DNA of 64,000 nt from an uncultured Bacilli bacterium. Its GTDB lineage: Bacteria > Bacillota_I > Bacilli_A > ML615J-28 > CAG-698. Below, piece after piece: positions 4,959 to 54,194 of this stretch (position 1 is its first letter; each line of letters opens with the position of its first letter). The notes under the pieces were generated by a model. It saw only the letters and a program-made list of their open reading frames with translations. It ran no database searches and was not told the DNA's origin. A program made the position numbers and the translations under genes. The stretch is taken from assembly GCA_934096585.1 (NCBI GenBank), contig CAKOMG010000001.1, forward strand, positions 2,256 to 66,255, read 5' to 3'.

Positions 4959-6236
4959 CTAATTAAAAAATTCAAATTCATATCCTAAAACTAATACTGT
5001 TTCCCCTGCTTTCACTCCTAATTCTTGTAATTTTTTATCCACTCCTAAATTTCTAATGCGTTTAGCAAACATTTTAACACTCTCATCTCTATTGAAATCA
5101 GTTGAATCAAATATTCTTTTGATTGCTGGGCCAACAACATTATATAAGCCTTCATCGGTTTTTTCGATTCTAAAAGGCTCTTCTTTAGGGATAAATTTAT
5201 ATTCTACTACTTCATCTTTAACAGTTTCATTAAAATCATCAAGTGAAACTTTATCCAACTCATTAGCAATTTCATATAACAAAGCATCTAAATTATCTTT
5301 AGTATATGCACTTATAGCTATTACATTCAAATCGGGATATTTTTCTTTAAACTTAATAAGATTTTCTTTAGAACTTGGTAAATCCATTTTGTTTGCCACA
5401 ACAATTTGTGGTCTAAGCATTAACTTTGGATTATATGTTACTAATTCATTATTGATTTTTTGATAATCTACAATCGGATCTCTACCTTCAAGACCAGACA
5501 TATCAATTACATGCACAATGACTCTTGTTCTTTCAATGTGTTTTAAAAATTGGAATCCTAGACCAGCTCCATTTGAAGCACCTTCAATTAGTCCTGGCAA
5601 GTCAGCCATTACAAAGCTTCTTCCATCTTTAACTTGTACAACACCTAAATTGGGAACTAATGTTGTAAAATGATAATCTGCAATCTTTGGTTTGCAAGCT
5701 GAACAAATAGAGATTAATGTTGATTTACCAACACTTGGAAAACCAACTAAACCGACATCAGCTAATACTTTTAATTCAATTCTGATTTCTTTTTCTTCAC
5801 CAGGTTCTCCATTTTCCGCAAATTCAGGAGCAGGAATTCTTGCAGTAGCAAAAGATGAATTACCTCTTCCGCCTCTACCTCCTTTAGCGATAATAGCTTG
5901 TTGATTATGTTTAGTTATATCAGCAATAACAATATTATTTGTTAAATCATACACAACACTACCAACGGGAACTTTAATGTACACATCAGTTGCATCTTTA
6001 CCAAAGCAATTTTTTGTCATTCCGTTTTCACCATTTTTAGCGGTAATTTTTCTTTTATACTTAAAATCTAATAAAGTTGTTAATCCTTCATCACCAACAA
6101 ATATTATGCTACCACCTTTTCCGCCATCGCCGCCATAAGGACCACCTTTGGCTATATATTTTTCATGACGAAAGCTTACAGCACCATTGCCACCATTGCC
6201 AGCTTTAACAACCAATTTAACGTCATCAACAAACAT
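4959..6236 (-). CDS. obg: GTPase Obg/CgtA
   Basis: Glycine-rich N-terminal Obg fold (KAGNGGNGAVSFRHEKY..GGPYGGDGGKGGSIIF). G-domain GFPSVGKST and DLPGLIEGA. AAAGGAG RBS. Confidence 0.95.
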   Translation of the reverse strand: MFVDDVKLVVKAGNGGNGAVSFRHEKYIAKGGPYGGDGGKGGSIIFVGDEGLTTLLDFKYKRKITAKNGENGMTKNCFGKDATDVYIKVPVGSVVYDLTNNIVIADITKHNQQAIIAKGGRGGRGNSSFATARIPAPEFAENGEPGEEKEIRIELKVLADVGLVGFPSVGKSTLISICSACKPKIADYHFTTLVPNLGVVQVKDGRSFVMADLPGLIEGASNGAGLGFQFLKHIERTRVIVHVIDMSGLEGRDPIVDYQKINNELVTYNPKLMLRPQIVVANKMDLPSSKENLIKFKEKYPDLNVIAISAYTKDNLDALLYEIANELDKVSLDDFNETVKDEVVEYKFIPKEEPFRIEKTDEGLYNVVGPAIKRIFDSTDFNRDESVKMFAKRIRNLGVDKKLQELGVKAGETVLVLGYEFEFFN

Positions 6237-7206: not shown

Positions 7207-7300
7207 CTGCATATCCTCCTTCTTGAAATATTTAAGACACGCCATAAAGGTGAATCTAATCCTTAAAAACCTTTTTTGTGCGGTTGCATAACACAACATT
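7207..7300 (-). promoter_or_regulatory. Structured 5' leader of rplU (possible L21-leader-type autoregulatory element)
   Basis: About 90-nt leader between a consensus promoter and the rplU RBS. It contains the hairpins TTGTG..CACAA and AAAGGT..ACCTTT. The position matches the known Firmicute L21 leader, but the family was not verified. Confidence 0.3.
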
Positions 7301-10505: not shown

Positions 10506-10552
10506 AGTAGAAAATTAATATTTTAAATTACTATTATTTTATTTATACTATA

Positions 10553-10582
10553 ATTAAAAAAAGAGCCTAAAAGAGACTCTTA
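10553..10582 (-). terminator. Rho-independent terminator after the ABC-2 permease gene
   Basis: Minus strand AAGAGTCTCTTTTAGGCTCTT followed by TTTTTTT. Confidence 0.5.
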
Positions 10583-11407
10583 ATTTAATTCAAAATCTTT
10601 ATCAATTATATTATAGCTAATTAAATACATTCCAATAATCAATAATATGTCAAAAATCAATTTAGTAAAATTTATTACATAACTTGATAACCCTAATGGG
10701 CTTAAATCATCAAATAAACCAGCGTTAAATGCATAACCATTTTCTGTGATTATAATACCAAAAGGTATAACTAATGCAACTGTATTTAAAACAGATATAC
10801 AAGTATAAACTCCCAAGGCAATACCAATAGCAATAATCGCTTTATTCTTTTTAGCTCTTAAATAATTTGTTAATGAACCGGCCATCAAAAGTATAAGAAT
10901 TAACTTCAATAATGATGATAAAGTTGTATAAATTATTTTTACTGATGTTAATCCGGAAAAAAAGATATTAGAAATTATTGATTTGAAAGTTTGTAAAAAA
11001 TCTAATGATGTATTTACTATCGCTACAAATACTAATGAAGCTCCTAAAAAATTCACAATTATAAATCCTATACCCCAAAGCATTGAAACCAATAGTTTAG
11101 ATAGTAATAATTGTTTTGTTGAAACAGGAATAGACATCGTTAAGTATCCTTCATCACCAAATATTTTATCTAAAAAAGTCCTTTTAATACTAATAAAGAA
11201 AAACACTACTGGAGCTAATAAAGCAGAAACTAAAGCAAATGATATACCTGTCGTAATTATTGACATAAATGGAGACCATGGATTTTGATAACGTGATACA
11301 AAAAACATATAAATAGCATAAATTAAATATCCAACAAAGCTAATACCATATCCAATAACATTATTTTTCCAATAATCCGCAAACTCATGTTTAATTAATT
11401 GGCGCAC
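10580..11407 (-). CDS. ABC-2 type exporter permease (6 TM) of the kinase/NTase/PqqD cassette
   Basis: Polytopic membrane protein. Likely GTG start at 11407, 7 nt after an AAGGAGGTG RBS. This overlaps the ATPase stop by 17 nt, whereas the track start at 11434 would overlap by 44 nt. Confidence 0.7.
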   Translation of the reverse strand: MRQLIKHEFADYWKNNVIGYGISFVGYLIYAIYMFFVSRYQNPWSPFMSIITTGISFALVSALLAPVVFFFISIKRTFLDKIFGDEGYLTMSIPVSTKQLLLSKLLVSMLWGIGFIIVNFLGASLVFVAIVNTSLDFLQTFKSIISNIFFSGLTSVKIIYTTLSSLLKLILILLMAGSLTNYLRAKKNKAIIAIGIALGVYTCISVLNTVALVIPFGIIITENGYAFNAGLFDDLSPLGLSSYVINFTKLIFDILLIIGMYLISYNIIDKDFELN

Positions 11408-12104
11408 AACGATACACCTCCTTAAATATTTCATTTAAACTTTTACCGCTATTGTTTCTAATTGTTTGCACATCATTACGAAGTGATACTTGACCATTCT
11501 TTAAAAAGATTGCATAATCTAAAATATTTTCAACTTCTGAAATTAAATGTGTGCAAATAATTATAGTTGAATCATCATTTTTTCCATTTAGTATTAATTG
11601 GAAAATTACATCTCTAGCAGCAGGGTCCACTCCCGCAATTGGTTCATCAAATATAAATACTTTCGCATTTCTTGATAAAACTAATATTATTTGTAATTTT
11701 TCTTTTGTTCCTTTAGATAATTCATTAAAGCTTTGATTAATATCTATTCCAAGTTCCTTTATTAATCGTAATGCCTTTTCTTTATCAAAGTCCACAAAAT
11801 AATCCGAAAAATAATCTAATATTTTTGTAATCGATAACCTTGATGGTAAACAAGGGCGATCAGGAAGATATGAAATGATCTTTTTAGTTTCTGGGCTTGG
11901 TTTTAATCCATAGATAAGTACTTCTCCTGTATACTTTTTTAATAAACCAGTTATAACCTTTATCATAGTCGTTTTTCCACTGCCATTAGGTCCCAGTAAT
12001 CCTATAATTTTTCCTTTGGGAAAATTAAGATCAACGTTATTTAAAGCAACAACATTTCCATATTTTTTTGTTAGAGCTTTAAATTCAATAATTGAATCAT
12101 TCAT
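11391..12104 (-). CDS. ABC transporter ATP-binding protein
   Basis: GPNGSGKTT Walker A, LSKGTKEKL signature, IFDEP Walker B. The start overlaps the peptidase stop (ATGA-type coupling). Confidence 0.85.
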   Translation of the reverse strand: MNDSIIEFKALTKKYGNVVALNNVDLNFPKGKIIGLLGPNGSGKTTMIKVITGLLKKYTGEVLIYGLKPSPETKKIISYLPDRPCLPSRLSITKILDYFSDYFVDFDKEKALRLIKELGIDINQSFNELSKGTKEKLQIILVLSRNAKVFIFDEPIAGVDPAARDVIFQLILNGKNDDSTIIICTHLISEVENILDYAIFLKNGQVSLRNDVQTIRNNSGKSLNEIFKEVYRCAPIN

Positions 12105-12537
12105 TTTTTGTTCCTCTCTTTCTAAAAAATTTTATAAACATAAACTTTAAAAAAACAAATGGTCTAAATAAACTAACTAAACGTGAATACAATTTATACC
12201 AAAAATTGTCAATAGAAACATATCTTTCTTTACGATAAAAGCCAGCCATAATGGCTATCATATTGTGGTCTTTAATTGTATATTCTTTTTTGTATTGATT
12301 GTCCCCACAAATAATATAAGCGCCGTTATTTGCTTTTAGAACACGATGTAATACATATTTTCCATTATCACGTTGAAACAATACAACATCATATTTTTTT
12401 ATTGTCCTATCAATTGGTTTTAATAGAACTGTGTCTTTGCCTTGTCTTAGCATTGGGAACATACTTGTTCCAACAATATTGGTAACAAAATATCCTTTTG
12501 TGGCTAAAATTGTTTTGTAATCATTCATTTTATTCAT
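12097..12537 (-). CDS. Soluble S24/S26-family (signal-peptidase-I/LexA-like) Ser/Lys peptidase
   Basis: 146 aa, no TM helix. GTSMFPML (box B Ser), HRVLK (Lys), ICGDNQ (box E GDN). Confidence 0.6.
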   Translation of the reverse strand: MNKMNDYKTILATKGYFVTNIVGTSMFPMLRQGKDTVLLKPIDRTIKKYDVVLFQRDNGKYVLHRVLKANNGAYIICGDNQYKKEYTIKDHNMIAIMAGFYRKERYVSIDNFWYKLYSRLVSLFRPFVFLKFMFIKFFRKRGTKNE

Positions 12538-12796
12538 CTAAAACATTTATCTTTTCAAGTTCAGAAATAAATGACTTTACATCTTTTATAGCTATTTCTC
12601 TAGAAACATCATATGTTTTCATTAATTCATCAACTAGTTTTTCTTCTGTTGTTCCTTTCATTAGAAAGTTCCATAAAAAAGCGCTAGTTTCATTTAAAGT
12701 AATCATTCCATTAAATTGTTTAGATGCTTCGCCAACAGGAACTACAATATAATTATCAGCTACCATTCTAAGCATAAAGCCTGATTTAATTTTCAT
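12530..12796 (-). CDS. PqqD-family peptide chaperone (RiPP recognition element-like)
   Basis: 88 aa. ...ITLNETSAFLWNFLMKGTTEEKLVDELMKTYDVSREIAIKDVKSFISELEKINVL follows the PqqD consensus (LNetaa.iW.ll.G..t.eei...l...Ydv..e.a..Dv..fl..L). Confidence 0.8.
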   Translation of the reverse strand: MKIKSGFMLRMVADNYIVVPVGEASKQFNGMITLNETSAFLWNFLMKGTTEEKLVDELMKTYDVSREIAIKDVKSFISELEKINVLDE

Positions 12797-12798
12797 AT

Positions 12799-13983
12799 TT
12801 ATATTTTTCCTTTCACATTTAAATCTTCGTGGAGATTCTTTAGTTTTTCAACATTTTCTTTTGATATATTATTTACATCTTTTACTTCTTCTTTAGTTTT
12901 CTTAATATGAAATATTCCTTTTAAAAGCCTAGTAAAATAAAACCATGGTAATAGAATAGGCATTTTTTTAGTAATAGGGTTTCTTATATTCATTGTTTCT
13001 TTACTTGGAAATAATCTTTTTAATATGTATTTTGATTTTGATTTTTCCAAGTTGTTAATTGCATCTTCATTCATAAAGATTGCAATAGATGCGCTATTTT
13101 TTAAGGTTCCATATGTTCCACTATTAAACACGCATTCTTCAAAATTGTTTATTAAGATAGTTTCTTCGTTATTACCAAACCAATAATTTGATAAATCGAT
13201 AGAAGCTTTCGCATATTTTGATAATCCCATTAAATCAAGTTCTTGATAAATATATTCATAATTTAAGGATTCATAATTATGAATAAATAAATATACGTCT
13301 ATAAAAGTTCTAATGCCTGTGCCACCATATGCAAAATGTTTAGCACTGTGTGCAATCATATAAATAAAGAAATCTTCTTTAGTCATTTGATACTCATAAT
13401 GACTTCCTTCTTTTAATATCAATTTTTTATTAATATTTTTATAATATTTACTTATTTTATAGCATTCATTCATCAATTCACGATGCATTTCAACGTTCAT
13501 ATAAGGTTTTTTGTAATACACATCATGATTACCTTTATTAAACATTTCAACTGTATATCCTAAATTAATCATTATTTTTTTAATAAGTTTTGCTTGTGTT
13601 TTATCAAAGTAGCAATCAAAGTCAGCCATACTGCGCAAATCTATATGTGGATATAAGTTTTTAATTACAGCACCTTTTAATGGCATAAACTTGATATGTT
13701 CACTTTCAAAAGTCTTCATTAAATCTTCTATTTCTGCTCCTTGCGTAGCAACCTTAAATAGAGATTCTTTAAATGCCATAGTTACTCTTGTTGAAAACTC
13801 TTCATATTTACTATTATCAAAAGATGGATTTTTAATTAGTCCATAATATAAAAAGTTTTCAACATTATGAACTTTTGCAATTGTAAATAATTTTGAATAT
13901 GAAACATCTAAAAAATGTGTTAAGGGAGTATTAGTCAAAACACTTTTGATAATTGATATTAAATAAATATATTCATTATTCAT
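12799..13983 (-). CDS. Nucleotidyltransferase-family protein (PF14907-like, 'uncharacterised NTase')
   Basis: 394 aa. FMPLKGAVIKNLYPHIDLRSMADFDCYF matches the LKG...YP...R..D.D core of this family. Confidence 0.7.
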   Translation of the reverse strand: MNNEYIYLISIIKSVLTNTPLTHFLDVSYSKLFTIAKVHNVENFLYYGLIKNPSFDNSKYEEFSTRVTMAFKESLFKVATQGAEIEDLMKTFESEHIKFMPLKGAVIKNLYPHIDLRSMADFDCYFDKTQAKLIKKIMINLGYTVEMFNKGNHDVYYKKPYMNVEMHRELMNECYKISKYYKNINKKLILKEGSHYEYQMTKEDFFIYMIAHSAKHFAYGGTGIRTFIDVYLFIHNYESLNYEYIYQELDLMGLSKYAKASIDLSNYWFGNNEETILINNFEECVFNSGTYGTLKNSASIAIFMNEDAINNLEKSKSKYILKRLFPSKETMNIRNPITKKMPILLPWFYFTRLLKGIFHIKKTKEEVKDVNNISKENVEKLKNLHEDLNVKGKI

Positions 13984-13987
13984 ATTG

Positions 13988-14695
13988 TCATTTCCTATTC
14001 ACTGTTCTATAAACTAATTCAACAGCTTCATCACTAATATTGCATTTCAAACCATAAATTGGAATTGTTTTTACAACCGTATTAATTATAAATAACAAAT
14101 TTTCCATTGTTTTATCATCACTTGGTCTTATTGTCTGTGATAAAATATTATATATTGCTTCTTTTCCACTAAGTAAGCGAATTTCATTAGTTATACCGCG
14201 TTCTAAAAAAATAATTGCTTTAATAGGATAACATGCATTTATATTTAAATCTGTTTTTCCAGAAAACGGAGTACCATAAGCATAAATTTTAGAATTTTCA
14301 ATCAGAATAGCTGGTTTATCATCATTTAAAATTTTTGCACCCTTAAAATATTTAACCCATAAATTAGTATGTGTTGATTTTCCAACTCCAGAAAAAGCAG
14401 AAAACAAATAAGCATAGTCTTCATAAACGACACAAGAAGAATGTAATAGGAAGCCTCCATTATCTATTAAGAATTCATAAAAGCGAGCTCCATATAACAT
14501 GTATTCACATTCACCTATTGTTAGAGCTGGAAAATGTTTTGAATAATCATCTAATTCTTTTTTTGAAATAGACAAATCTGCCATAGCTTCTTCTTTTTTT
14601 GTTTTGTAATTTTCACTTTGTGTAAGTAAAGGTTGATATTTAGGATTCATAAATACAACTTTTTTAGCTATTTCATAGTTCATATATATCACCAA
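13988..14695 (-). CDS. HPr kinase/phosphorylase C-terminal-domain-like P-loop kinase (HprK-related)
   Basis: 235 aa. Walker A FSGVGKST embedded as in HprK (GxSGxGKSE/T). No HPr-binding N-domain. GGTGA RBS. Confidence 0.7.
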   Translation of the reverse strand: MVIYMNYEIAKKVVFMNPKYQPLLTQSENYKTKKEEAMADLSISKKELDDYSKHFPALTIGECEYMLYGARFYEFLIDNGGFLLHSSCVVYEDYAYLFSAFSGVGKSTHTNLWVKYFKGAKILNDDKPAILIENSKIYAYGTPFSGKTDLNINACYPIKAIIFLERGITNEIRLLSGKEAIYNILSQTIRPSDDKTMENLLFIINTVVKTIPIYGLKCNISDEAVELVYRTVNRK

Positions 14696-14700
14696 TTTAT

Positions 14701-14729
14701 ATTATATCAAAAATGTAACTTAAAAGCAA
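14701..14729 (-). promoter_or_regulatory. Promoter of the kinase cassette (TTGCTT-17-TGaTATAAT)
   Basis: Minus strand TTGCTTttaagttacatttttgaTATAAT, about 20 nt upstream of ATG 14695. This leaves a 5'UTR of about 15 nt. Confidence 0.5.
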
Positions 14730-14767
14730 ATAAATGCCTTGTAAAAAATTATTTATTTTTAAATCAA

Positions 14768-14778
14768 AATATGATATA
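14768..14778 (+). promoter_or_regulatory. Extended -10 (TGaTATAAT) for the CofE-like gene
   Basis: atgatataat read directly, 30 nt upstream of ATG 14809. The -35 is unclear. Confidence 0.35.
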
Positions 14779-14808
14779 ATTAGTCGTATTCATAAGGAGG
14801 TAGTATTT

Positions 14809-15999
14809 ATGGATAGATTAGTTGGTACTGTATCTAGAGGAATTAGAGGACCAATCATTCGTGAAAATGATGATATTTGTGAGATAGTTGTTGACTGTAT
14901 GTTAAAGGCAAGTGAAAGCGAACATTTCACTTTTCACGATAAAGATGTTATTGCTCTTACTGAAGCAGTAGTTGCAAGAGCACAAGGAAACTATGCAACT
15001 ATCGATCAAATCGCCGAGGATATCAAGCAAAAATTTCCTAATGGAATTATAGGTCTTACATTCCCTATTTTAAGCAGAAACAGATTTTCTGTATGTTTAA
15101 AAGGAATTGCAAAAGGGGCGAAAAAAATTATATTAATGTTAAGTTATCCATCTGATGAAGTTGGAAATCATCTGGTAACATTAGATCAATTAGATGAAAA
15201 GCATATCAATCCATGGACAGATGTTTTAACAGAACAACAATTTAGAGATGCATTTGGTTATCAACCACATCATTTCACAGGAGTAGATTACGTAAAATAT
15301 TATCATGATTTAATCACTAGTATGGGTGCAGAAGTTGAAATTATTTTCGCTAACGACGTAAGAACTATATTAAACTATACTGATTCTGTTCTATGTTGCG
15401 ACATTCACACACGTGAAAGAAGCAAAAGACTATTAAAAGAAAAAGGTGCAAAAACCGTTTATGGATTGGATGATGTTTTAAGTTCTTCAGTTAATGGCAG
15501 TGGCTATAATGAAAAATATGGACTATTAGGAAGTAATAAAGCAACTGATGAAAAAATCAAATTATTCCCAAGAGATGGCCAAAAAGTTGTAGATCGTGTT
15601 CAACAAATGATGCTTGAAAAAACAGGAAAACATGTTGAAGTAATGATTTATGGAGATGGTGCTTTTAAGGATCCAGTTGGAAAAATTTGGGAACTTGCTG
15701 ACCCTGTATGCTCTCCATTCTATACAAAAGGATTAGTAGGACAACCTAATGAAGTTAAATTAAAGTATCTTGCTGACAATGATTTTGCTAATTTAAATGG
15801 TCAAGAACTAACTGAAGCAATATCAGAATATATTAAAAAGAAAGATTCTAATCTAAAAGGACAAATGGTATCACAAGGTACTACCCCTCGTCAACTTACT
15901 GATTTAATTGGTTCACTATGTGATTTAACATCTGGAAGCGGAGATAAAGGAACACCATTCATTTTAATCCAAGGATATTTTGATAATTATACAAATTAA
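14809..15999 (+). CDS. CofE-like (F420-0:gamma-glutamyl ligase family) protein
   Basis: AGGAGG RBS then ATG at 14809 (MDRLVGTVSRGIRGPII). C-terminal SGSGDKGTPFILIQGY resembles the CofE GEGxEGxPxxIVRG motif, and MIYGDGAFKDP resembles SDTNGRAFR. Family assignment was made by eye only. Confidence 0.5.
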   Translation: MDRLVGTVSRGIRGPIIRENDDICEIVVDCMLKASESEHFTFHDKDVIALTEAVVARAQGNYATIDQIAEDIKQKFPNGIIGLTFPILSRNRFSVCLKGIAKGAKKIILMLSYPSDEVGNHLVTLDQLDEKHINPWTDVLTEQQFRDAFGYQPHHFTGVDYVKYYHDLITSMGAEVEIIFANDVRTILNYTDSVLCCDIHTRERSKRLLKEKGAKTVYGLDDVLSSSVNGSGYNEKYGLLGSNKATDEKIKLFPRDGQKVVDRVQQMMLEKTGKHVEVMIYGDGAFKDPVGKIWELADPVCSPFYTKGLVGQPNEVKLKYLADNDFANLNGQELTEAISEYIKKKDSNLKGQMVSQGTTPRQLTDLIGSLCDLTSGSGDKGTPFILIQGYFDNYTN

Positions 16000-26799: not shown

Positions 26800-27072
26800 T
26801 CTGACAATAATAAAAAAGACTCATCTCATTTTTGAGACGAGTCTATAATCCCGCGGTACCACTCAAATTGTATAGATTAACTATACCACTTTTAGGCTCT
26901 AACAAGCCCTATGCATTAACGTAGCCTACACGTAAATCCTTAATAACAAGTGCTTTAGGGATTTCAACTCAGAAGTGATAAGAGTATGAAGTAATTTACT
27001 AAGTTTCACCTAATCTTAGCTCTCTAAAAAATTGACTTTCATTTCCGTCTTCGTCATAGTTTTTATCAATTG
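26800..27072 (-). promoter_or_regulatory. T-box riboswitch leader controlling brnQ
   Basis: Minus strand contains AGAGAG (stem I region) and the T-box sequence AATTTGAGTGGTACCGCGGG. This is followed by the terminator GACTCGTCTCAaaaaTGAGATGAGTC + T6, just upstream of the brnQ RBS. Confidence 0.75.
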
Positions 27073-27183: not shown

Positions 27184-27257
27184 TGGAGGCTCCTGTCGGA
27201 TTTGAACCAACGATCAGGGTGTTGCAGACCCACGCCTTACCACTTGGCTAAGGAGCC
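27184..27257 (-). tRNA. tRNA-Cys (anticodon GCA)
   Basis: Minus strand GGCTCCTTAGCCAAGTGGTAAGGCGTGGGTCTGCAACACCCTGATCGTTGGTTCAAATCCGACAGGAGCCTCCA. Cloverleaf with anticodon loop CTGCAAC, GTTCAAATCC T-arm, encoded CCA. Confidence 0.85.
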
Positions 27258-27357: not shown

Positions 27358-27392
27358 TTAAACTATTGTTTTCATTTAAACTATTGTTTCAT
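27358..27392. repeat. Tandem direct duplication (17/18 bp) spanning the stop codon of the giant gene
   Basis: ttaaactattgttttcat immediately followed by ttaaactattgtttcat. The second copy encodes the C-terminal ...ETIV* and stop. Confidence 0.5.
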
Positions 27393-30300
27393 ATTCTTTA
27401 CTAATAATGCGATAATCATTAACAAAATTATCATGTGCTTGTACTTTTGTTATAGGATTATTATAACGGCTTTGATCAAATTTAGTTAAAGAATCATAAG
27501 GATGTGTAGTATAAATTAATGGATTGTTATTTACAAGTGATGTATAGTATACAAGGAATAAAGCATTATATATATCAGCAATTGATGCTTTAAATACTCT
27601 TGAAATTACCATACCAGCACCCAAATCATTTAATTCATTAATTTTTTCATCTGTACCTAATTCTTTTAGATTACTAACATTATTATTTAGATTCTTATAA
27701 TCTATATATTTATTCATAATATAGAATGATTCTAAGAAAGTCATCAAATCATATTCATCATTATAAACTTTTACTTTCTCTGAATCCTTATAATAATTAA
27801 AGTTAGCCATCAAAGTTGAATCAAAGAATGTTGATAAAGAACTTGATGTTAATAAAGATTTTGCAACATCCGCAAATACTTCCTCCATGATATATGATTG
27901 AAGTAATGTCTTTACATCACTTGTTATAACATCATAATGATCATCATAATTAATTATCAATGAAGCAGTCAGTAAAGTATCAATTGTGAATTCATCTATT
28001 TCAGAGAATTTAGTTCCCGATTTACCTAGTAAGATAGATACACTTGTTAAAATATTCCATAATTCTTTTTCTTTAACAACACCATCAACACTAACTTCAT
28101 ACCAATCATTTCTATTATTTTTATCAGTTAAAACAATAGAATTATTTAATAGCTTTTGATTATCTTCTGTTTCTTGAATGAAATCTTTGTCATTTGATTT
28201 TAGTGATTTGAATGCTACAATTTGTGAAACAATTGTTTCAGAAATTACAATTGAACCAAGTAAATTAGTTCTATATTCTTTCGAATCATCTAAAACAATA
28301 CTTGATATCATTGTATCAATAGAATTTGTTATATTAAAACTTGCAATTGAAGTTTTTGTTGAAGCGGATAATCCTAAAGCACTATATACAGAAACTAATA
28401 ATCGATCTAGTTCTCCTCGTGTAGTTAATATTTCACTAGAATATACATTCATCCATTTATTATAATCATCTGTAGAAACAACATTATAATAATCAGGAAT
28501 AACTAAGCCAGCACCATTCAAACTAATTACCTTATCAATTAGTGTTGCTGAAATGATGTACGATTTTAATATATTTTCTCTATTCATAACAATATCTTCA
28601 ATATAAATATTATCTAATTTTGAATTTAAACTATCAATTGTTACAATAGTGCTGTTATTTGAAACATCTAAAATTTGATCAATTGAATTTAAAAGATGAG
28701 CAAGCTCTCCATAACTAATAACATTATTATAACTTGTGTCATACTCATTCTTCCAGAATCCATAATCATTAATCCATGATTTTCTATTTGCAACTTTCTT
28801 ATCATTTGGAATAGTTAAAGTTGGTGAAAGTGTTTCAATCTTATCAATGATAGTAGCAGAAATGACTGCTGACTTCAAAATTTCATCTTGATTTACCATA
28901 ACTTTTCTTAAATCAATGCTATCGGTAGTAATATTAAATCCAGATTCAGGAATTAAATCAATGACATTCAAAGCATCTAAGATTCTAAATAATTCATTAT
29001 GATCATTAATCCATTCATTATAGTTGCCTTGATACTCTAGTGGAACTACAATACTAACTCCATTTAATTCTTGAATTTTTTTAACTATTGTAGCTGTAAA
29101 AATTTCAGATGTAAATACTTCTTCTTTATTATTAACGACTTTCATTAATGAAACATTATTAACATTAATGTTTTCAACTGAAACATTCTTTTGAACAAAT
29201 GCGTAATCCATTCCACTAATAAAGTTGCTTAATTCATTTGTTGAAATCCATTCATTGTAATCAGTTGACCAAATGTGGTTACTATTTACATTGAATTTAT
29301 CTGGAATATTTAATACTGTATTCAATGACAATACTTTATCTATCATTGTCGCTGATAATACAACAGATTTTAAAATTTCTTCTTTATTGATTATAATCTT
29401 TTCAATTGTTAAATCATCAATATTAATTTCAAATCCTGTATCTGGTATTAAATCAACTGAATCAATTGCATCTAAAACTAAATTTAATTCTTTATCAGTT
29501 CCTATCCATAATTCATATGAATCAATATACTCTTTTGGAACAATTATTCCGTTATTATTTAAATCTCTTATTTTGTCAATAATTGTATATGATAAAACAT
29601 TTGATTTGAATACTTCATTTTTATTAACAATAACATTCTTTAAAGAAATATTATTAATACCAATACTATTTACACTAATATTTTTATTAATAAGCGCATA
29701 ATTTAAGCCATTAAATATTTTGCTTAATTCACCATCATTGCCCTTCCATAATAGATAATCAGTTTCCCAAACATGTTCTTGATTAACCTTATATTCATCA
29801 GTTATTGTTAAAGTATTATCTAAATTCACAACTTTATCAACAAGTGTAGCAGTTAAAACAGCAGATTTTAATATTGAGACTTTATTATCAATAACATTGC
29901 TAATCGTAATGTCATCAATATTTATATCAAATCCATTGTTTGGAATCAACCCAATATTATCTAAAGCTTCAAGAATGGCAAATAATTCATTATCTGTACC
30001 AACCCATAAGTCATATCCATTTTGATACTCTAACGGGATAATTATTGAACTATTTTCAATCTCTTTAATTTTTTCAACTACTGTTGCTGTTAAAATAACC
30101 GATTCAAAAACTTGTTCTTTATTATCTACTATTTTTCTTAAAGAAATATTATCAATTGTTATATTATTTAAATCAATTTCATTACCACTTTCCGTAATAG
30201 ACAAAGCTATATCTAAACTAGTAATTAGTTTACTCAATTCACCACGCGTTAAAACATTATTATAATTATCATCATATGTATTTTTCCATAATGTATAATC

Positions 30301-33300
30301 AGTTTTCCATATATGTGTATCACTAACCAAGTATTCATTTGGAATTGTTAGAATATTACCATTTAAAGCAATAATTTTATCAACAAGTGTAGCAGTCAAT
30401 AAAGCAGATTTTAATATTTCATCTTTATTGTTGATTATATTCATTAATGAAATACTTTGAAGATCAACATTAAATCCTTTATCTGGTAAAGTAATAGTTT
30501 TATCTAATGCATCCAATACTAAAGATAATTCTCCTGATTTTGTTCCCTTATCTTTCCATAAACTATAATCGTTTCCTAAATATTCGGATGGTACAATAAT
30601 AGTTCCATCATTATTTAAATCTTGAATTGTTTTAATAATTGTTGCTGAAATAATATCTGATGCAAATATAACATCTTTATTTTGAATAATATTGTTCAAG
30701 CTGATATTATCAACATTTATTGATTCAATTAATACAGGTTCAGTTGATGTTGAAATACCTAAGGCAACATCCAGTGCAGTAAATATTCGATTTAACTCTC
30801 CAACTTTTCCATCTTCATCTCGCCATAATCCACTGCCATTTTCTTTATATTCATCAGGAATATTTAAAACTGAATCTTGTTTTCTAATTTGATCAACTAA
30901 TGTTTCAACAAGTATATACGATTTAAATAATATTTCTTTGTTATTTATGACATTTCTTAAATCAATAGAAACATTCTTAATATCTTGAATTTCTAAGCAA
31001 GAAATTGCATTGAAAACATTTCTAAGTTCACCACTTACTTTAATTGCTTCTACTTTAAATGTATCAGCACTACTATAAACATAACCATCAATTGTTGACA
31101 AATCAAATAAATTATTTGTTGTGGAAGCAAAATAAATGCCATTTTTATAAATAATATATTTTGAAGATGTTGCTTCATTCATAATTAATTTGTTATTATT
31201 AATTGAATATGCCACTTCTTGTCTAATGTCATTCCATGCATAATGGCTATCATCTTCATATATTCCTTTTAAAATTTCTAAGTCTTGACCTTCTTTACTT
31301 TTATCAACAAGAATGTTTTTCAAAGTTTCTCTAAATAATTTAGATTCTAAAATAATATCTAAATCACTTTCTGATAAGTTTAATATTGTTTCAACATTAA
31401 ATGTGCCTTCATCCATTGTTGATGCAAGTGTTTTAAATGATTTAAATACAGCATAAATTTCATTATTTGTCCATTCTTCTTTATTCAATGTAGAAATTTT
31501 AAATTCTAAATCTTTAGAAAAATAATCAAGAATTGGACTTAAGTTCTTTGTCATGAATTTTGAACTAGAAATATAATTAGATAAATTAACTATTGTTTCA
31601 TCATTTATATTTTTAATTTCTTCAAATGGTTTTTCACTTCCAATTAAATTTGTTGAAGCAAAAATACTCAAACTATGTAATAGTCCTTTTAATTCACTCT
31701 CATTCCACTCTTCACCTTTCTCTTTATCTAATCCTTCAAATGTAATATCACCAAGTTCTACTTGTTTCATTAAATAATTTATTACATTATTTAAATTTTT
31801 TGTAAAGAATCTTGAACTTGATAAATTAATTGCTAATGAATCTATTTGTTCGTCTGTTAAATCTTTTACAGCATCAATTGGATTTTTAGAATCAATTATG
31901 CCAGAATCAATTATAGTTTTAAAAGCATGTAACAAACTCTTTAATTCTGTTTCATCCCAATTCTCACCTTTTTCTTTATCCAAAGTCTCAAGAGTCAAAC
32001 CTTCCACATTAATTTGTTCAATTGCAAAATTAACAATTGGATTTAAATTTTTTGCGAAAAATTTAGAATTAGAAAGTGAAGTAGCTAAATTATCAATTTT
32101 TTCATCATCTAATGATTTAATAGCAAACATTGGATCTTCTGCTCCAATAATTCCTGTATTAATAATTATTTTTGCAGCTCTAAATAATGAAACAATTTCA
32201 TTTTCATCCCAGTGTTCATTTTTATTTGAATCTAATCCTTCTAATTTTAAATTTTCAATGTTTCCATTATCAACTAATATATTAATTAAATCATTCATAT
32301 GATTGCATAGTAACTTACTTTTTGATAAATATCTACCTATTTCTACAAACTCTTCATCATCCATTTCACATATAGTTGTCAATGGATCCTTTGAATTTAT
32401 AATATTTGTTTTTAATAATGTTGCTGCTGCAGTAAGTACAGGCGAAAGTTCTTCTCTCCAATTAGTACTTTTTAGCTCTTCTGCGCTTATTAAATCCTTA
32501 TAATTATCAGGAATAAAATTAACATATAACGTTGAAGCAACAACAGGAATCGACTTATCAACAATATAAAATTTAAATAGTGTTTGTACAAATGCATCCA
32601 CCTTATCTTGATTTATTTCACTAAAATCAATATTGTTTGTATCAATTTTTAAACCTAAATTTACTATTGATTTATATAATTCAGGGATTAATAATAATTC
32701 GTGTGTAAAGAAATTTTCCTTATTTATAACTTTATCAATATTAAGATCTTCAATAGTAAATCCAGCAGTTGCAAGAGCATTTTTAATATAACCAGTTGAA
32801 AGAATATATGAAACTGCAACAGGCGCAACCAAATCAAGCAACTCCATTTCACCTAACTTTTGAAAAATAGTTTCAACTTTATTAACATCTAAATTTAAAT
32901 AATCAATACTTACAACATCAGATAATCCATCACCTAATAATTCAACAACATCAACTAAAGCATATCCTAAACTTTGAATATCTTTATTATAATCAATATC
33001 ATTAAACTTATTAATGTTGTCCAGCAACACTTGATGAATTTGTGCATATTGATCACCTAAAACATCAGCTAAAATATCAGTATATGTTACTATTTCTAAA
33101 CCAATTGGCACTAACACTTTGATAGTATCTAATGATGAAACGACATCAACAAGTTCTTTCAAGGAATCAGTGTTTAGATTTGCTAAATCGCTAATTGTAA
33201 ATCCTTCTGTAAGAATTTGTTTAGCTGCGTCATTTTGTAATAACTTTGCAAGAATATTGATTTCCTTACGAATCTTAATGGTTCCATTTTTTCCATTAAT

Positions 33301-34152
33301 TTTAAATAGAGAATCAAATAAAGCTTCATCTATAGTTACTTTATCTTTTCCAAATTTTAGAACTCCAAAAATTCTACCAGGAATTGTTGTACGATATCCT
33401 TCAAGAACATCAATAACATCTCCATATTCTTCTAAATAACTGTCTAAAGTATTATTTTTTGTACCACTTGATAAATCCATAAAAACTAAATCATCATCTG
33501 TACATATTACTCCAACATTGACATTTTCACTATCAATTTCTTTTATTGAACTGGCAATTGATGATAATCCCGCAAATATGAAGCCTAATAGTAAAGTACA
33601 AAGTAGTCCTCGAAATGCGCCTATTCCTAATCCTCCTAAGCGTGACCCCATTGACTTCTTTGGTGCTCTCTTTTTCCCATTAACCATAACTTTTTTAGGT
33701 TTTAAAAATGACCAAACGATTGCATCAATGATTTGTGATAAAATTAATGAAACAATTAACCATACAATCCAAAATGCCATTTTAAAAATAGTCATAACAA
33801 CACCATAAATAAAGGCATTAGCATTTGTTCCTTCTACTAACATTTCTTTTGTAAAATATTCTGGAAATTGTGTAACTAACCATTCTTGGACAAAACTATT
33901 TAAAGTGGTTAGTTGTTTATCATTAATAATAAAATTATATTTTGAAAAATCAAAATTTAAAATAGCTTTAACTTGTAAATTAATAGTTAATAAGGCTATT
34001 AGAAATAATATAACCCAAACTATCAAATGTACTAATGATTTCCTAGTTCCCCTAATAAACCCTATTAAAGCTCCTAAAAAAATCATAACCCCAAATAAAA
34101 GATTTAGATACAGCAAGATATCCGTTGCTGGTATTGGTAAAATATTTAACAT
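27376..34152 (-). CDS. Giant (2258 aa) membrane-anchored repetitive surface protein, function unknown
   Basis: N-terminal region of about 200 aa with several TM helices. Then 4 copies of a roughly 70-aa repeat (EGLDKEKGEEW..EL..LLH....G(I/L)IGSE.P...IK.L.DE.I..L...LS.S.F..KNL). Then at least 12 copies of a roughly 90-aa repeat in two alternating subtypes (NISL..II.NKDEILKSA.LTAT(L/I)VDKI..LN..LTIP.EY...W.TDY.LW...EL). GGGAGGG RBS. Confidence 0.8.
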   Translation of the reverse strand: MLNILPIPATDILLYLNLLFGVMIFLGALIGFIRGTRKSLVHLIVWVILFLIALLTINLQVKAILNFDFSKYNFIINDKQLTTLNSFVQEWLVTQFPEYFTKEMLVEGTNANAFIYGVVMTIFKMAFWIVWLIVSLILSQIIDAIVWSFLKPKKVMVNGKKRAPKKSMGSRLGGLGIGAFRGLLCTLLLGFIFAGLSSIASSIKEIDSENVNVGVICTDDDLVFMDLSSGTKNNTLDSYLEEYGDVIDVLEGYRTTIPGRIFGVLKFGKDKVTIDEALFDSLFKINGKNGTIKIRKEINILAKLLQNDAAKQILTEGFTISDLANLNTDSLKELVDVVSSLDTIKVLVPIGLEIVTYTDILADVLGDQYAQIHQVLLDNINKFNDIDYNKDIQSLGYALVDVVELLGDGLSDVVSIDYLNLDVNKVETIFQKLGEMELLDLVAPVAVSYILSTGYIKNALATAGFTIEDLNIDKVINKENFFTHELLLIPELYKSIVNLGLKIDTNNIDFSEINQDKVDAFVQTLFKFYIVDKSIPVVASTLYVNFIPDNYKDLISAEELKSTNWREELSPVLTAAATLLKTNIINSKDPLTTICEMDDEEFVEIGRYLSKSKLLCNHMNDLINILVDNGNIENLKLEGLDSNKNEHWDENEIVSLFRAAKIIINTGIIGAEDPMFAIKSLDDEKIDNLATSLSNSKFFAKNLNPIVNFAIEQINVEGLTLETLDKEKGENWDETELKSLLHAFKTIIDSGIIDSKNPIDAVKDLTDEQIDSLAINLSSSRFFTKNLNNVINYLMKQVELGDITFEGLDKEKGEEWNESELKGLLHSLSIFASTNLIGSEKPFEEIKNINDETIVNLSNYISSSKFMTKNLSPILDYFSKDLEFKISTLNKEEWTNNEIYAVFKSFKTLASTMDEGTFNVETILNLSESDLDIILESKLFRETLKNILVDKSKEGQDLEILKGIYEDDSHYAWNDIRQEVAYSINNNKLIMNEATSSKYIIYKNGIYFASTTNNLFDLSTIDGYVYSSADTFKVEAIKVSGELRNVFNAISCLEIQDIKNVSIDLRNVINNKEILFKSYILVETLVDQIRKQDSVLNIPDEYKENGSGLWRDEDGKVGELNRIFTALDVALGISTSTEPVLIESINVDNISLNNIIQNKDVIFASDIISATIIKTIQDLNNDGTIIVPSEYLGNDYSLWKDKGTKSGELSLVLDALDKTITLPDKGFNVDLQSISLMNIINNKDEILKSALLTATLVDKIIALNGNILTIPNEYLVSDTHIWKTDYTLWKNTYDDNYNNVLTRGELSKLITSLDIALSITESGNEIDLNNITIDNISLRKIVDNKEQVFESVILTATVVEKIKEIENSSIIIPLEYQNGYDLWVGTDNELFAILEALDNIGLIPNNGFDINIDDITISNVIDNKVSILKSAVLTATLVDKVVNLDNTLTITDEYKVNQEHVWETDYLLWKGNDGELSKIFNGLNYALINKNISVNSIGINNISLKNVIVNKNEVFKSNVLSYTIIDKIRDLNNNGIIVPKEYIDSYELWIGTDKELNLVLDAIDSVDLIPDTGFEINIDDLTIEKIIINKEEILKSVVLSATMIDKVLSLNTVLNIPDKFNVNSNHIWSTDYNEWISTNELSNFISGMDYAFVQKNVSVENINVNNVSLMKVVNNKEEVFTSEIFTATIVKKIQELNGVSIVVPLEYQGNYNEWINDHNELFRILDALNVIDLIPESGFNITTDSIDLRKVMVNQDEILKSAVISATIIDKIETLSPTLTIPNDKKVANRKSWINDYGFWKNEYDTSYNNVISYGELAHLLNSIDQILDVSNNSTIVTIDSLNSKLDNIYIEDIVMNRENILKSYIISATLIDKVISLNGAGLVIPDYYNVVSTDDYNKWMNVYSSEILTTRGELDRLLVSVYSALGLSASTKTSIASFNITNSIDTMISSIVLDDSKEYRTNLLGSIVISETIVSQIVAFKSLKSNDKDFIQETEDNQKLLNNSIVLTDKNNRNDWYEVSVDGVVKEKELWNILTSVSILLGKSGTKFSEIDEFTIDTLLTASLIINYDDHYDVITSDVKTLLQSYIMEEVFADVAKSLLTSSSLSTFFDSTLMANFNYYKDSEKVKVYNDEYDLMTFLESFYIMNKYIDYKNLNNNVSNLKELGTDEKINELNDLGAGMVISRVFKASIADIYNALFLVYYTSLVNNNPLIYTTHPYDSLTKFDQSRYNNPITKVQAHDNFVNDYRIISKEYETIV

Positions 34153-50356: not shown

Positions 50357-53068
50357 TTATTCAGTTACAGTGTTATGAACTAAATATGCTTTTACATTAT
50401 ATTCGCCTTCAGCAGCACCAATAATGTTCATTGCTATATAAATAGTATCACCAACTTGCATATTTAATGCTTTTAAAGCATCTCCTGCTTTATAAGTTCC
50501 ATTATAACCGCATAGTAAATAATCCCATTCTGCAGTAATTCCTGAATTAGGTTTTCCAGAAGGAACGATTTCAACAACTGTGAATTTACCATTTTCATAT
50601 TTTAATGCAACACGTTCAGTGTATGTAGAAGTTTTAAATTTATAACCATTCTTTAAAATATTTAATCCTTCGTAAACAGGCATACTAGCAGTTGCAGCTT
50701 GAGTGTTTTTATGGATAACGAATTCAGTTGCGCTTGCATCAACGAATAATGGTTTTAAAGTTTTGCCAGCTAATGTTGCATCAACTACTTTAACGATTTC
50801 ATTCTTTTCATTAACCCAACCTAAGAATACTTTTCCTTCTTTAACAGCAACTAATGTAATTTCAGTTTCTTTTAACATTGTTACGTTAACAACTTCAGTA
50901 ATTGCAACAACTAATTGTTCCATTCCTGTAGGAACTGCATTTAATTGATCAGCAGTTACATAAGGATTTTCCTTATTAAATCCTTGCATATATCTACCTA
51001 ATTCATGTGCATAATAAGCAGTAATTGCAACCCAAGAACGATCGGCTCTAAATGTTTTTGAAATATAAGCCATAAATGGAGACCATTTAGCAAACATTGC
51101 TGGATCGCCTAAGAAATATACATTGTCAGCTGCATCAGAAGCAGTAGGTGTTTGGTCTTTAAATGTAGTATAATCTACCATAAAGTTAACTTTTGAGTCT
51201 CTTTCTTGATCATAATTTGGATATAAACTTGATGGATTTGCAGCTGCACCAACATAGCAGAACCATTTACCATTGAAGTTTTCGCCAATGAAATCAGCTA
51301 AACTTAAATCTTCAGCTTTGAATGCGCCTTTAGCAACACACCAGTTATAGAAATCAGTTAAGAATACAGTTTTAACTTGTGTAGAGTTAGATACATAACC
51401 TTGTGCACCATCGAAATCAAATGTAAAGCTTACAGGTTCTCCCCATTTAGCATATACTTTCATATCGCCTTCTACTAATGTTTTAGCAGTAACAGCATTA
51501 GTGCATTCAGCTTCTAAGAACCAACCTTCAAATGTATAACCTTCTCTTGTAGGAGCAGGTAATTCACCAACAGCTTTTCCATAAACTAATGTTTCAATAG
51601 CTTCAGGAGCACCTGTAGCATCTACATAGTTTAGATCAAATTCAATCTTATGACTATTTCCTTGCCATTTTGCTCTTAAAGTCTTAATTTCAGTTTTGTT
51701 ATCAATAGTTTCAACTTTAGTATCACCATCGAACCAACCTAAGAATTGATAGTTATCTCTTGAAATTACTGGAAGAGTAACAGCTTCGCCATCTTCAGCA
51801 ACAATTACAGGATTTGTAACTTCTTCTTTAACAGGATTCTTAGTATCATCATTTAATACTAATTGAACTTCAGCACCAAATACAGCTTTAACAGTTGTAG
51901 CTTGAGTTGGAGTGAATACCATACCAACATTAGTTTCACCATCAAACCATGTTCTAAATGCTAAATCACCTTTACCAACTTTTGGTAATGATAATTGTTC
52001 ACCAACAGTAACGATATAAGTAGTTTCTTTACTAGCGATATAGTAATCTAAAACTCTCTTTTGAACTTCTTCAGTTGAGAAGTCAGCTGTATAGTGATAT
52101 AAAGTTTCAACTAATTTAGAACTAATAAATGCATTTAATGCAAATGCTACAGAGTAAGGAGCAATATCTTTACTTAAAGCTACTAAATCTTCACCATTTA
52201 ATGCGTTCTCTAACCATGTGTATAAGTCATGTTCAGCCTTTGGATATGCACCAGGATTTGCAACATCTGCTTGTTCAAATTCAACATCTTTTAAATATTG
52301 TAATAATGGACGCCATTTAATTTTATAAGCTTCATCATTAAACATCTTCCAAACTTCAGCATCCCAAACACTTACATTAGTAGCAGGATTTGAAAGTTTT
52401 TTCCAATTTGTATAATCAGCTAAGAATTCTTTCTTTAAAGCTTCAACGTTTTTATAAGTACCAACGATTTCTCCACCATTTAAGTCTAATTTTACTTCAT
52501 ATCCCCAAACTGCAGTTAAAGTAACATCACCTTTAACAACATATGTATCGTTATATACTTGTTCTCCATCGCTCCATCCTTTGAATATTACACCTTCTTT
52601 AGTAGGTTTAGCTAATGTTAATTCTGTTTTATAAACAACATTTTCTAAATCTTTAACATCAGCAGTTCCACCATCTAAATTAAATTTAACAGTGTATTGT
52701 CTAGAATATCCATCTAAATCTTCAAATGAAAGTAACATTTTCCATTCATCGTCACCATCACCTTCATAACGCCATTTAATTCCAGTAGCATCTACTTTAA
52801 ATTCAACTTGTTTACCAGGTTCTCCTTGAGGACCTCTTTCTCCTTGAGGACCTTGTGGACCAGTTTCACCAGTTTCTCCTCTAGTTCCTTTATCTCCCTT
52901 AGGTCCACGTTCACCAGGTTCACCATCTATTCCGTCTTTACCTGCAGCACCAGCGTCTCCCTTAGGACCTTGGATACCTTGTTCTCCTTGAGGACCAGTA
53001 CATCCTACTAAGCAGAAAACAGAACAGATTAACATTAATACTACTAAAATAAAACTTCTTCTTTTCAT
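50357..53068 (-). CDS. Collagen-like (GXY)n surface lipoprotein with Listeria-Bacteroides repeats
   Basis: AAGGAGG RBS then [23 protein letters not shown] lipobox. About 20 uninterrupted G-X-Y triplets ([22 protein letters not shown]...GEPGK). Then at least 4 Flg_new-type repeats (..F.GW..GE.V) and a large C-terminal domain of unknown function. Confidence 0.75.
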
Positions 53069-53308
53069 GTTATCTAAAACCTCCTTGTTTTTTTTAGTAA
53101 AAATAGACATCTCTATTCGTAAATATTATACCATTTTTTACACTAAATTGTCAAGCGTTTACATCAATTTACATTTAAAAAATTTTGTTTTTTTACTTTT
53201 GTTTGTTTTTTTGTATTTCTTTTATTTAAATATATAGTAAAAGCTCTATAAATATGCTATAATAATATATGAATAAATTATACATTTTAGAAAGGATATT
53301 AATTTAAC

Positions 53309-53876: not shown

Positions 53877-54065
53877 ATGAACAACAAAAAATCAAAAACT
53901 GTTTTTTCCAATTTTTGTGATGGAAAAAGACTTTCAACAAAACATTCAAGTCACATTCAAGGACCATTCATGAATGAATTTGGCGAAGATATTATATCTG
54001 AAGTTGTTGAAAACGAAATTAAAGTTAAACCAAAAAAGAAAAGAGTAACAAAAAACGATAAATAA
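53877..54065 (+). CDS. Small basic hypothetical protein (62 aa)
   Basis: Strong RBS TAGGAGGaatattATG and its own terminator. Lys-rich C-terminus (KVKPKKKRVTKNDK). No family recognised. Confidence 0.4.
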   Translation: MNNKKSKTVFSNFCDGKRLSTKHSSHIQGPFMNEFGEDIISEVVENEIKVKPKKKRVTKNDK

Positions 54066-54117: not shown

Positions 54118-54194
54118 GTCGCCGTAGCTCAGTTGGATAGAGCATTTGCCTCCTAAGCAAAGGGTCGGCAGTTCGAGTCTGCTTGGCGACGCCA
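54118..54194 (+). tRNA. tRNA-Arg (anticodon CCU)
   Basis: GTCGCCGTAGCTCAGTTGGATAGAGCATTTGCCTCCTAAGCAAAGGGTCGGCAGTTCGAGTCTGCTTGGCGACGCCA. Anticodon loop CTCCTAA, encoded CCA. Confidence 0.9.

Follow-up and report, generated by a model that had tools for sequence, protein, structure and literature searches.

An LPP-like cassette, probably for peptide maturation and export, in an uncultured human-gut Bacilli bacterium

Introduction

Which product is made by six adjacent genes that resemble the tailoring part of a lasso peptide cluster, with no lasso cyclase beside them? The genes in question (10580-14695, minus strand) lie in a 64-kb stretch of DNA (the window). They code for a kinase, a nucleotidyltransferase-fold protein (NTase), a PqqD-type protein, a homolog of signal peptidase I, an ATP-binding cassette (ABC) ATPase and a membrane permease. 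An initial interpretation made from the DNA letters (the sequence-only reading) had proposed an exported and possibly linear peptide, phosphorylated/nucleotidylated or glycosylated, with an S26-type peptidase in the position of the leader peptidase, and had presented this as novel. For the present analysis, the proteins were compared with Pfam and NCBIfam, with AlphaFold models searched by Foldseek, and with the loci of relatives (L001 etc.).

The kind of system is already published. Linear Polyphosphorylated Peptides (LPP) were defined from Bacillales in May 2026 (Popov et al., Nat Commun 2026;17:6633; PMC13381572). The earlier proposal matches the architecture and chemistry established there and is thus correct in substance, but it is not new. 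We consider it likely that the operon is an LPP-like cassette for the maturation and export of a peptide that is made on ribosomes and modified after translation (RiPP), encoded in an uncultured human-gut bacterium of the Bacilli/Acholeplasmataceae. The cassette is a variant of LPP and not a plain member.

Comparison with the published LPP system

The LPP reference cluster is lppA-K-B-S-D-N from Paenibacillus alginolyticus DSM5050. The conserved set consists of a signal peptidase I (SpI)-like peptidase (LppS), a discrete RiPP recognition element (RRE; LppB), an HprK-like kinase (LppK), an NTP transferase (LppN) and an MsbA-like transporter (LppD) (PMC13381572). A macrolactam cyclase is not part of LPP. 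LppK attaches one to four phosphates to Ser3 of the core, as shown in a B. subtilis host. LppB presents the substrate to the SipW-like peptidase, and LppS, which requires LppB, cuts the leader after F-3, E-2, T-1. The LppS mutants S29A, H68A and D93A are inactive, while deletion of lppN led to no detectable change (PMC13381572). The precursors have 35-200 aa and are encoded by one to three genes in or near the biosynthetic gene cluster. Their leader is YxxPxVLxHQxIxFETxxS (P-x9-F-x-[T/A]). The biological role of LPP is described as unknown (PMC13381572).

All five functional classes of the LPP core are found in one operon in the window, which supports the LPP-like reading. Both systems have an HprK-like kinase, a discrete PqqD-type RRE, a PF14907 NTP-transferase and an ABC transporter. 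Both have an archaeal-type, SipW-like S26 peptidase, and Ser25/His64/Asp79 of the window protein match S29/H68/D93 of LppS. The RRE, encoded adjacent to the peptidase, keeps the Asn and Asp counterparts of LppB N33 and D70. A macrolactam cyclase is found in neither system, and both hosts are Bacillota.

There are also differences. The gene order is K-N-B-S in the window, whereas it is lppA-K-B-S-D-N in P. alginolyticus. The window has a 237-aa ATPase and a separate permease with six transmembrane (TM) segments, while LppD is an MsbA-like protein with fused transmembrane and nucleotide-binding domains (TMD-NBD). The window has no lppA-like gene in cis. Its locus is located amid housekeeping genes and not in a capsule locus.

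For placement, the proteins were compared by BLASTP with a sample of the sequences from Supplementary Data 1 of PMC13381572. Among these, the peptidase and the RRE are nearest to clusters 9 and 4 of the published sequence similarity network (SSN), outside of cluster 1 and the LPP RRE clade. The peptidase shows 37% identity (7e-26) to a cluster 9 SpI from Ruminococcus, matches cluster 4 sequences (Dehalobacter, Anaerocolumna) at 1e-17 to 1e-22, and shows 24-31% identity (1e-8 to 1e-12) to the LPP SpIs of cluster 1. With the "other RRE" sequences from clusters 4 and 9, the RRE shares 39-44% identity (1e-20 to 1e-26), compared to 1e-5 to 1e-10 for published LPP RREs. In the publication, clusters 4 and 9 are labelled "other RRE" and their precursors are given as "ND" (PMC13381572). 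It is because of the pump, the lack of a cis precursor with the published leader and the placement outside SSN cluster 1 that the cassette is classified as a variant.

Based on homology, fold and the conservation of catalytic residues, we infer the following five steps; the kinase and leader-cleavage steps have been shown experimentally only for the P. alginolyticus lpp cluster (PMC13381572). The PqqD-type RRE would bind the leader of a YxxP-type precursor as an added beta-strand, with its Asn fixing the Pro kink and its Asp hydrogen-bonding the Tyr. The HprK/PEPCK-fold kinase would use ATP to place one or several phosphates on a Ser near the N-terminus of the core. The RRE would offer the leader-core junction to the SipW/Sec11-type peptidase (Ser25-His64-Asp79), upon which the leader would be removed. 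The PF14907 enzyme may decorate the phosphate further. A decoration linked to PF14907 is the hexose in pseudomycoidin; in LPP, none has been detected so far (PMC6993621; PMC13381572). Finally, the ABC-2-type ATPase and permease would expel the product.

Thus, the same enzymatic logic as in LPP reaches uncultured, small-genome Bacilli/Acholeplasmataceae of the human gut, where it is combined with another pump and has no precursor in cis. For the window itself, the gain is modest, as a variant of a published kind is described and its substrate is missing.

Proteins of the cassette

The six tightly packed minus-strand genes of the sequence-only reading are all present as co-directional open reading frames (ORFs). 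The spacing between them is, in order, +4, +2, -8, -8 and -44 nt.

The first gene (13988-14683, minus strand) codes for a predicted LppK-like P-loop peptide kinase (231 aa). The start codon is more likely ATG at 14683, with GGTGA 6 nt upstream, than TTG at 14695. The protein has no match in the local copy of Pfam, in which Hpr_kinase_C is included, and all NCBIfam matches are below threshold (ScmC, 9e-5; HprK_rel_B, 2e-4; HprK_rel_A, 9e-3). At least 7,788 homologous proteins exist at E <= 1e-3, and according to precomputed annotation its homologs carry the newer Pfam family PF27840 ("ScmC"). The Walker A motif is FSGVGKST, and the metal-binding motif is ILNDDKP. In the alignment of homologs, G99, G101, K102, S103 and T104 of the P-loop are invariant, as are N120, D121, D122, K123 and P124. 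The Asp pair equivalent to this NDD motif is required in the lasso kinase PsmK (PMC6993621). Searches of PDB sequences with the kinase, the NTase and the peptidase as single sequences yielded nothing useful. As a profile search with the kinase failed as well, its fold was searched instead. The AlphaFold model, computed from a 36-sequence alignment, has a pLDDT of 95.4, and its top PDB matches in Foldseek are ATP-dependent PEPCK and HprK/P (E ~6e-6, probability 1.0). The protein had been described as a P-loop kinase similar to the HprK C-terminal domain. The HprK/P-PEPCK fold and the invariant P-loop bear this out, but Hpr_kinase_C is not matched and the family is PF27840.

The second gene (12799-13983, minus strand) codes for an LppN/PsmN-like protein (394 aa) with a nucleotidyltransferase fold. 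Its assignment to PF14907, already made from the sequence, is confirmed by Pfam (5.7e-41). There are more than 200 homologs. Invariant residues in the alignment are L102, K103, G104, Y111, R117, D121 and D123. Some PF14907 homologs occur without kinase, RRE or peptidase (L018:9881-11017, L028:9965-11131). These genes directly follow polysaccharide biosynthesis genes (CapD-like and sugar-phosphate transferase-like), which hints that the PF14907 family handles sugar-phosphate chemistry more generally.

The third gene (12530-12796, minus strand) codes for the LppB-like discrete RRE (88 aa) and overlaps the peptidase gene by 8 nt. The earlier assignment as a PqqD-family chaperone holds, with a Pfam PqqD match at 1.5e-16; matches to lasso_PqqD in NCBIfam are below threshold. 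The protein aligns to the LppB chain 9x8z_B (13 bits) and to TbiB1 (5v1u). In LppB, N33 fixes the Pro kink and D70 the Tyr of YxxP, while the paeninodin-type lasso RREs have Gly and Gln at these positions (PMC13381572). In the alignment, Asn35 and Asp72 of the window protein occupy the columns of N33 and D70. Because these residues are kept, a Tyr-type YxxP leader is predicted for its substrate.

The fourth gene (12097-12537, minus strand) codes for an LppS-like, archaeal/ER-type homolog of signal peptidase I (146 aa). The Pfam match is Peptidase_S24 (4.6e-6), and the best NCBIfam match is sigpep_I_arch (8.7e-10). Residues invariant in 35 homologs are G23, S25, M26 and P28 (GxSMxP), Y61-V62-L63-H64-R65 (YVLHR) and G78-D79-N80 (GDN). 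In a profile search, YVLHRI aligns with the box that holds the catalytic Lys in signal peptidase I from Bacillus, and also with IVHRVLK of human SEC11A. A His is thus found where the bacterial signal peptidase has its catalytic Lys. The structural model (pLDDT 88) matches SEC11C best, followed by SpsB, SipA and LexA/UmuD. The enzyme had been taken for a small soluble S24/S26 peptidase of the Ser/Lys type. The S24/S26 fold stands. The alignments indicate a Ser-His-Asp and not a Ser/Lys enzyme, with the predicted catalytic residues Ser25, His64 and Asp79. The protein also carries a hydrophobic C-terminal helix (residues 120-138) and, therefore, may not be soluble.

The last two genes code for the transporter pair. 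The ATPase (11391-12104, minus strand; 237 aa) matches ABC_tran (4e-24) and is ABC-2/DrrA/PmtA-like. Its best NCBIfam matches, all below threshold, are PmtA (2e-43), GldA, DrrA and a lantibiotic-protection ATPase. The cognate integral-membrane permease (10580-11434, minus strand; 284 aa) is predicted to have 6 hydrophobic segments, taken as ~6 TM segments. It has no match in Pfam or NCBIfam and no ABC_membrane domain. It is conserved together with the ATPase in L001, L002 and L005. Of the pair proposed originally, the ATPase is supported by its domain match, while the ABC-2 assignment of the permease finds no family match.

Relation to lasso peptides and other systems

Kinase, PF14907 protein and PqqD protein are typical accessories of Firmicute lasso clusters (PMC7533575; PMC6993621). 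In addition, about one-third of the SpI genes in the main SSN cluster adjoin genes for a lasso cyclase and a B2 protease (PMC13381572). The cassette might, in principle, be the tailoring half of an ordinary split lasso cluster, with cyclase and B2 protease being encoded elsewhere. Of the 14 window ORFs that reach 380 aa or more, twelve were compared with Pfam and have no match to Asn_synthase; the other two are Obg and a histidine kinase, as judged by synteny with L001. Within ±10 kb in the syntenic loci L001 and L002, no Asn_synthase and no transglutaminase-like (B2-type) protein was found, while small ORFs of B2 size elsewhere in the window were not scanned. Among 82 neighbors of related cassettes (430-760 aa), no Asn_synthase family occurs in two or more (Pfam). 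From the window scan and these neighbors, the cyclase-less architecture is real and recurrent. The sequence-only reading was thus right about the missing cyclase; for the missing B2 protease, it holds for the surroundings of L001 and L002. It had also considered that homologs may always sit beside a lasso cyclase and a B2 protease, and no recurrent neighbor of this kind was seen. The RRE carries Asn and Asp, as in the LPP (Tyr) type, where lasso RREs of the paeninodin type have Gly and Gln, and the role of the leader peptidase is already filled by the S26 peptidase. Taken together, a split lasso cluster is extremely unlikely.

The best-known systems of this type, paeninodin (PadeK) and pseudomycoidin (PsmK, PsmN), share with the window an HprK-like kinase with a DD metal site, a PF14907 NTase and a PqqD RRE. 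In these systems, the RRE binds a [Y/W]xxP leader, and a phosphate and then a hexose are attached to Ser. They also encode a B2 cysteine protease along with an Asn-synthetase-like cyclase, and the Ser that they phosphorylate is the C-terminal one. In the window, in contrast, no cyclase was found, and B2 is replaced by a serine peptidase of the S26 type.

SynChlorMet (ScmC/ScmD; TIGR04249/TIGR04248) and the HprK-related A and B systems (TIGR04352/TIGR04355) likewise combine a PqqD-like protein with an adjacent kinase-like protein from this superfamily. The window kinase is below the cut-offs of ScmC, HprK_rel_A and HprK_rel_B (21.9, 15.1 and 20.3 bits compared to 125, 200 and 200). No radical-SAM gene is present in the operon, in contrast to SynChlorMet.

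Related loci and a precursor family in a sister clade

The sequence-only reading had suggested that a comparison of gene neighborhoods would reveal if the cyclase-less architecture recurs and which small ORF accompanies it. A scan with a 12-sequence NTase alignment, with one genome per species, resulted in 80 loci, nearly all from Bacillota. Their ORFs were labelled using the six window proteins. The architecture does recur, as kinase, RRE, peptidase and NTase occur together in at least 33 of the 80 loci. A co-occurring small ORF was also found (see below). All six genes are intact beside HAD-truB-ribF in L001, L005 and L002, with NTase identities of 70%, 59% and 51%. Clustering of 503 unlabelled neighbors revealed no recurrent family except for large secreted proteins with Flg_new repeats.

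The commonest order among the 33 complete cassettes is K-D-S-A-N, with A being a fused ABC exporter of ~565 aa. Such cassettes occur in Clostridia, Erysipelotrichales and "Tenericutes" (e.g., in Clostridium formicaceticum, CP020559, L003). All four biosynthetic proteins are homologous to those of the window (30-46% identity for the NTase; phmmer E-values of 1e-10 to 1e-69 for kinase, RRE and peptidase). They differ from the window type by the fused exporter and by mostly having one or two small precursor genes; the window type has neither.

The small ORFs that adjoin the K-D-S-A-N cassettes form a clear precursor-like family, with examples being MKKAYEKPEIEITTFEPEDILASSLTNGGSGTGDEFGWGDIH and MKENYEELQMEVIEFETEDVITTSGGAGNGG (beginning). 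The leader is MKKxYEKPEhEhxxFExED(V/I)hxxS (also MKKxYEKPEhEhxxFExEDVITTS), with a P-x6-F spacing; some of the leaders have lost the Pro of YxxP. The cores are short and variable, contain many Gly, Asp, Asn and Pro residues, and often have an aromatic residue close to the C-terminus. Among the 33 complete cassettes, 20 have a small precursor gene within 10 kb, of which 17 score E < 1e-3 and three are borderline. Examples are L003:6692-6805, L008:2532-2660, L014:6607-6753, L022:3732-3863, L059:5579-5695, and L064:707-877 and 5525-5704; there are about 30 more. The family has no Pfam or NCBIfam model. Its leader profile weakly recognizes published LppA leaders (best E-value 2e-5, from a set of 11), while the spacing differs, being P-x6-F in the sister clade and P-x9-F-x-[T/A] in published LPP. 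This family probably supplies the precursors that were left as "ND" for SSN clusters 4 and 9 (PMC13381572).

The sister clade is much larger than the window type. It is spread over Clostridia and Erysipelotrichales, rumen and gut taxa among them, and has its own uncatalogued precursor family. Its substrates allow testing what the nucleotidyltransferase adds and whether the peptides are signals, antimicrobials or envelope components.

Some sister loci have additional genes. In two loci from "Tenericutes"/Bacilli (L009:6870-8737, L013:11376-13237), the cassette is extended by a radical-SAM/SPASM gene and a second ScmC-like gene, and the precursors contain Cys. These cassettes may be hybrids with a SynChlorMet-like or a thioether pathway. 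About four loci have AgrC-like GHKL histidine kinases (HATPase_c_5) adjoining the cassette, two of them being L039:4454-5797 and L015:5213-5965. Some of these also carry a response regulator, which would fit regulation by a peptide signal.

The missing substrate

The sequence-only reading did not remark on the absence of a precursor gene, and the searches of the window and of three syntenic relatives found none. This is one of several points that weigh against an LPP-like cassette. No leader-like ORF was detected in the 64-kb window or in L001, L002 and L005, using the sister-clade, leader-only and published-LppA profiles as well as regular expressions, nor in the 10 kb beyond the left edge of the window, which were analyzed in three strains. 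The identity to characterized LPP proteins is low, as seen from the 24-31% of the peptidase and the 13 bits of the RRE. The type of the transporter differs from the MsbA-like LppD, and it could be an immunity pump instead of an exporter. Also, a role of the PF14907 protein has yet to be proven even for LPP (PMC13381572).

The individual searches in the window gave the following results. The patterns Y..P.[LMIVF], a broader version thereof, and Px9Fx[TA] / Px6F were negative or unconvincing. Among small intergenic ORFs with a ribosome-binding site, nothing convincing was found. Small window ORFs that are conserved in comparison to L001, L002 and L005 are only shadows of ribosomal-protein genes. 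The N-terminus of the kinase was considered as an embedded leader and was rejected, the spacing in "KYQPLL" being wrong and the segment being part of the well-folded kinase domain. In ten further complete cassettes, no precursor was detectable within 10 kb either.

The simplest reading, given that the precursor gene is not in the window, is that the gene for the substrate most likely lies at another place in the genome. A precursor apart from some of the biosynthetic genes has precedent. In Supplementary Data 1 of PMC13381572, two Paenibacillus rows list the LPP RRE and the precursor at other places in the genome than the SpI gene.

Alternatively, a precursor may be present in the window but be too divergent for detection, and some sister-clade leaders indeed lack the Pro of YxxP. 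The candidate is an ORF of 62 aa (53877-54065, plus strand). It has a strong ribosome-binding site and codes for a conserved hypothetical protein that is found on 63 contigs (MDY2902461.1). It contains EFGEDIIS, and F-x-E-D-I-I-S recalls the leader end F-E-x-E-D-V-I-T-T-S. It is, however, matched by none of the three leader profiles, even at E-values up to 50-100, and has no YxxP motif. It is flanked by trmL and a tRNA gene, at a distance of 39 kb from the cassette, and ends in a strongly basic tail, whereas the cores of the family are acidic and Gly-rich. We consider it very unlikely that this ORF, or another divergent one in the window, is the precursor.

A further alternative is that the cassette has been repurposed for proteins, and that it phosphorylates, decorates and/or clips secreted or lipid-anchored surface proteins. 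This would account for four syntenic genomes in which no cis precursor is detectable, and published LPP precursors already reach 200 aa (PMC13381572). Large secreted proteins with Flg_new (Listeria-Bacteroides) repeats are encoded directly upstream of the precursor genes in at least 11 sister loci (L003:3572-6655, L019:7524-9725, L064:1157-5524 and others). Flg_new proteins are also encoded just past the left edge of the window, and one of 917 aa is encoded in the window (50357-53110). They are, however, common in these genomes, and their adjacency may be due to chance. A second candidate is a lipoprotein family with the C-terminus DPNW(T/G)xx(Y/F), whose genes are found within or beside the cassette in five loci of the Bacilli type, the syntenic L002 among them (L002:8508-9212, L012:15010-16275, L013:9176-9898, L024:6137-6847, L032:14047-14766). 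It could be an immunity protein, a receptor or a substrate, but the window does not encode it. In the RRE, the residues for binding a YxxP leader are retained, and no protein of the window has such a motif in the right context. The ten other cassettes for which no precursor was found may reflect limited search sensitivity or precursors encoded in trans. Overall, a protein target is unlikely. A more specific version is that the K-N-RRE-S26-ABC2 cassette, fixed beside HAD-truB-ribF in a lineage of gut Bacilli with small genomes and having no cis precursor, is RiPP-derived machinery that phosphorylates, decorates and clips a nondedicated substrate (e.g., Flg_new proteins or lipoproteins) for envelope biogenesis, and is not a bacteriocin-like RiPP cluster. 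We regard this as somewhat less likely still. An LPP-like cassette acting on a trans-encoded peptide remains the preferred reading.

As to the Flg_new proteins themselves, the 917-aa protein encoded at 50357-53110 is a lipoprotein with collagen and Flg_new repeats. The genes just past the left edge of the window form a strain-variable array, each coding for ~240 aa (L085-L087:15071-17761).

Genomic setting and other features of the window

The cassette was described earlier as having one promoter and one terminator. The terminator is borne out by an intrinsic terminator-like hairpin followed by a T-run, directly after the stop codon of the permease gene (10551-10581, minus strand; 10581-10561 in the terminator scan). 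The promoter-like site TTGCTT-17 nt-TATAAT, with a TGn extended -10 (14701-14729, minus strand), can be read directly from the sequence. It is missing from the consensus scan because its -35 box scores 3/6, while the scanner has a 4-of-6 rule. Promoter-like sites are not enriched in this AT-rich region (30 found, compared to 37 ± 7 expected in shuffled sequence). For these two reasons, the promoter at 14729-14701 is plausible but weakly supported.

It had also been stated that the cassette is inserted between HAD-truB-ribF and the side of the ribosomal genes. HAD-truB-ribF is indeed found on one side, but the other flank is a divergent CofE-like/TetR pair. The L21-L27 ribosomal genes are located past ribF and a gene of the nucleoside phosphorylase family (PF01048, 7355-8038). 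The cassette does not differ from its flanks in G+C content (0.25-0.28) or GC skew, and no signs of a mobile element were seen. As its linkage to HAD-truB-ribF is kept down to 51% NTase identity, and as mobile-element signs are lacking, the cassette looks vertically inherited in this lineage and not recently inserted. Exact copies of five of the six cassette proteins occur in human-gut metagenome assemblies, on contigs of up to 728 kb, and exact copies are also found in metagenome-assembled genomes at NCBI that are labelled "Bacilli bacterium" and "Acholeplasmataceae bacterium".

The CofE-like gene (14734-15999, plus strand) codes for a homolog of F420-0:gamma-glutamyl ligase (PF01996, 3.7e-54). 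It is divergent from the cassette in the window and also in L001 and L005. Such a homolog is odd, since the host is not expected to make F420.

An ORF of 2,258 aa (27376-34152, minus strand) matches no Pfam family at E <= 1e-4, and ORFs of ~1,950-1,970 aa, likewise without a family, are found beyond the left edge of the window (L085-L087). A T-box leader (26830-27066, minus strand), a ribosomal protein L21 leader (7225-7295, minus strand) and two tRNA genes (27187-27257, minus strand; 54118-54191, plus strand) fit a Bacillota chromosome.

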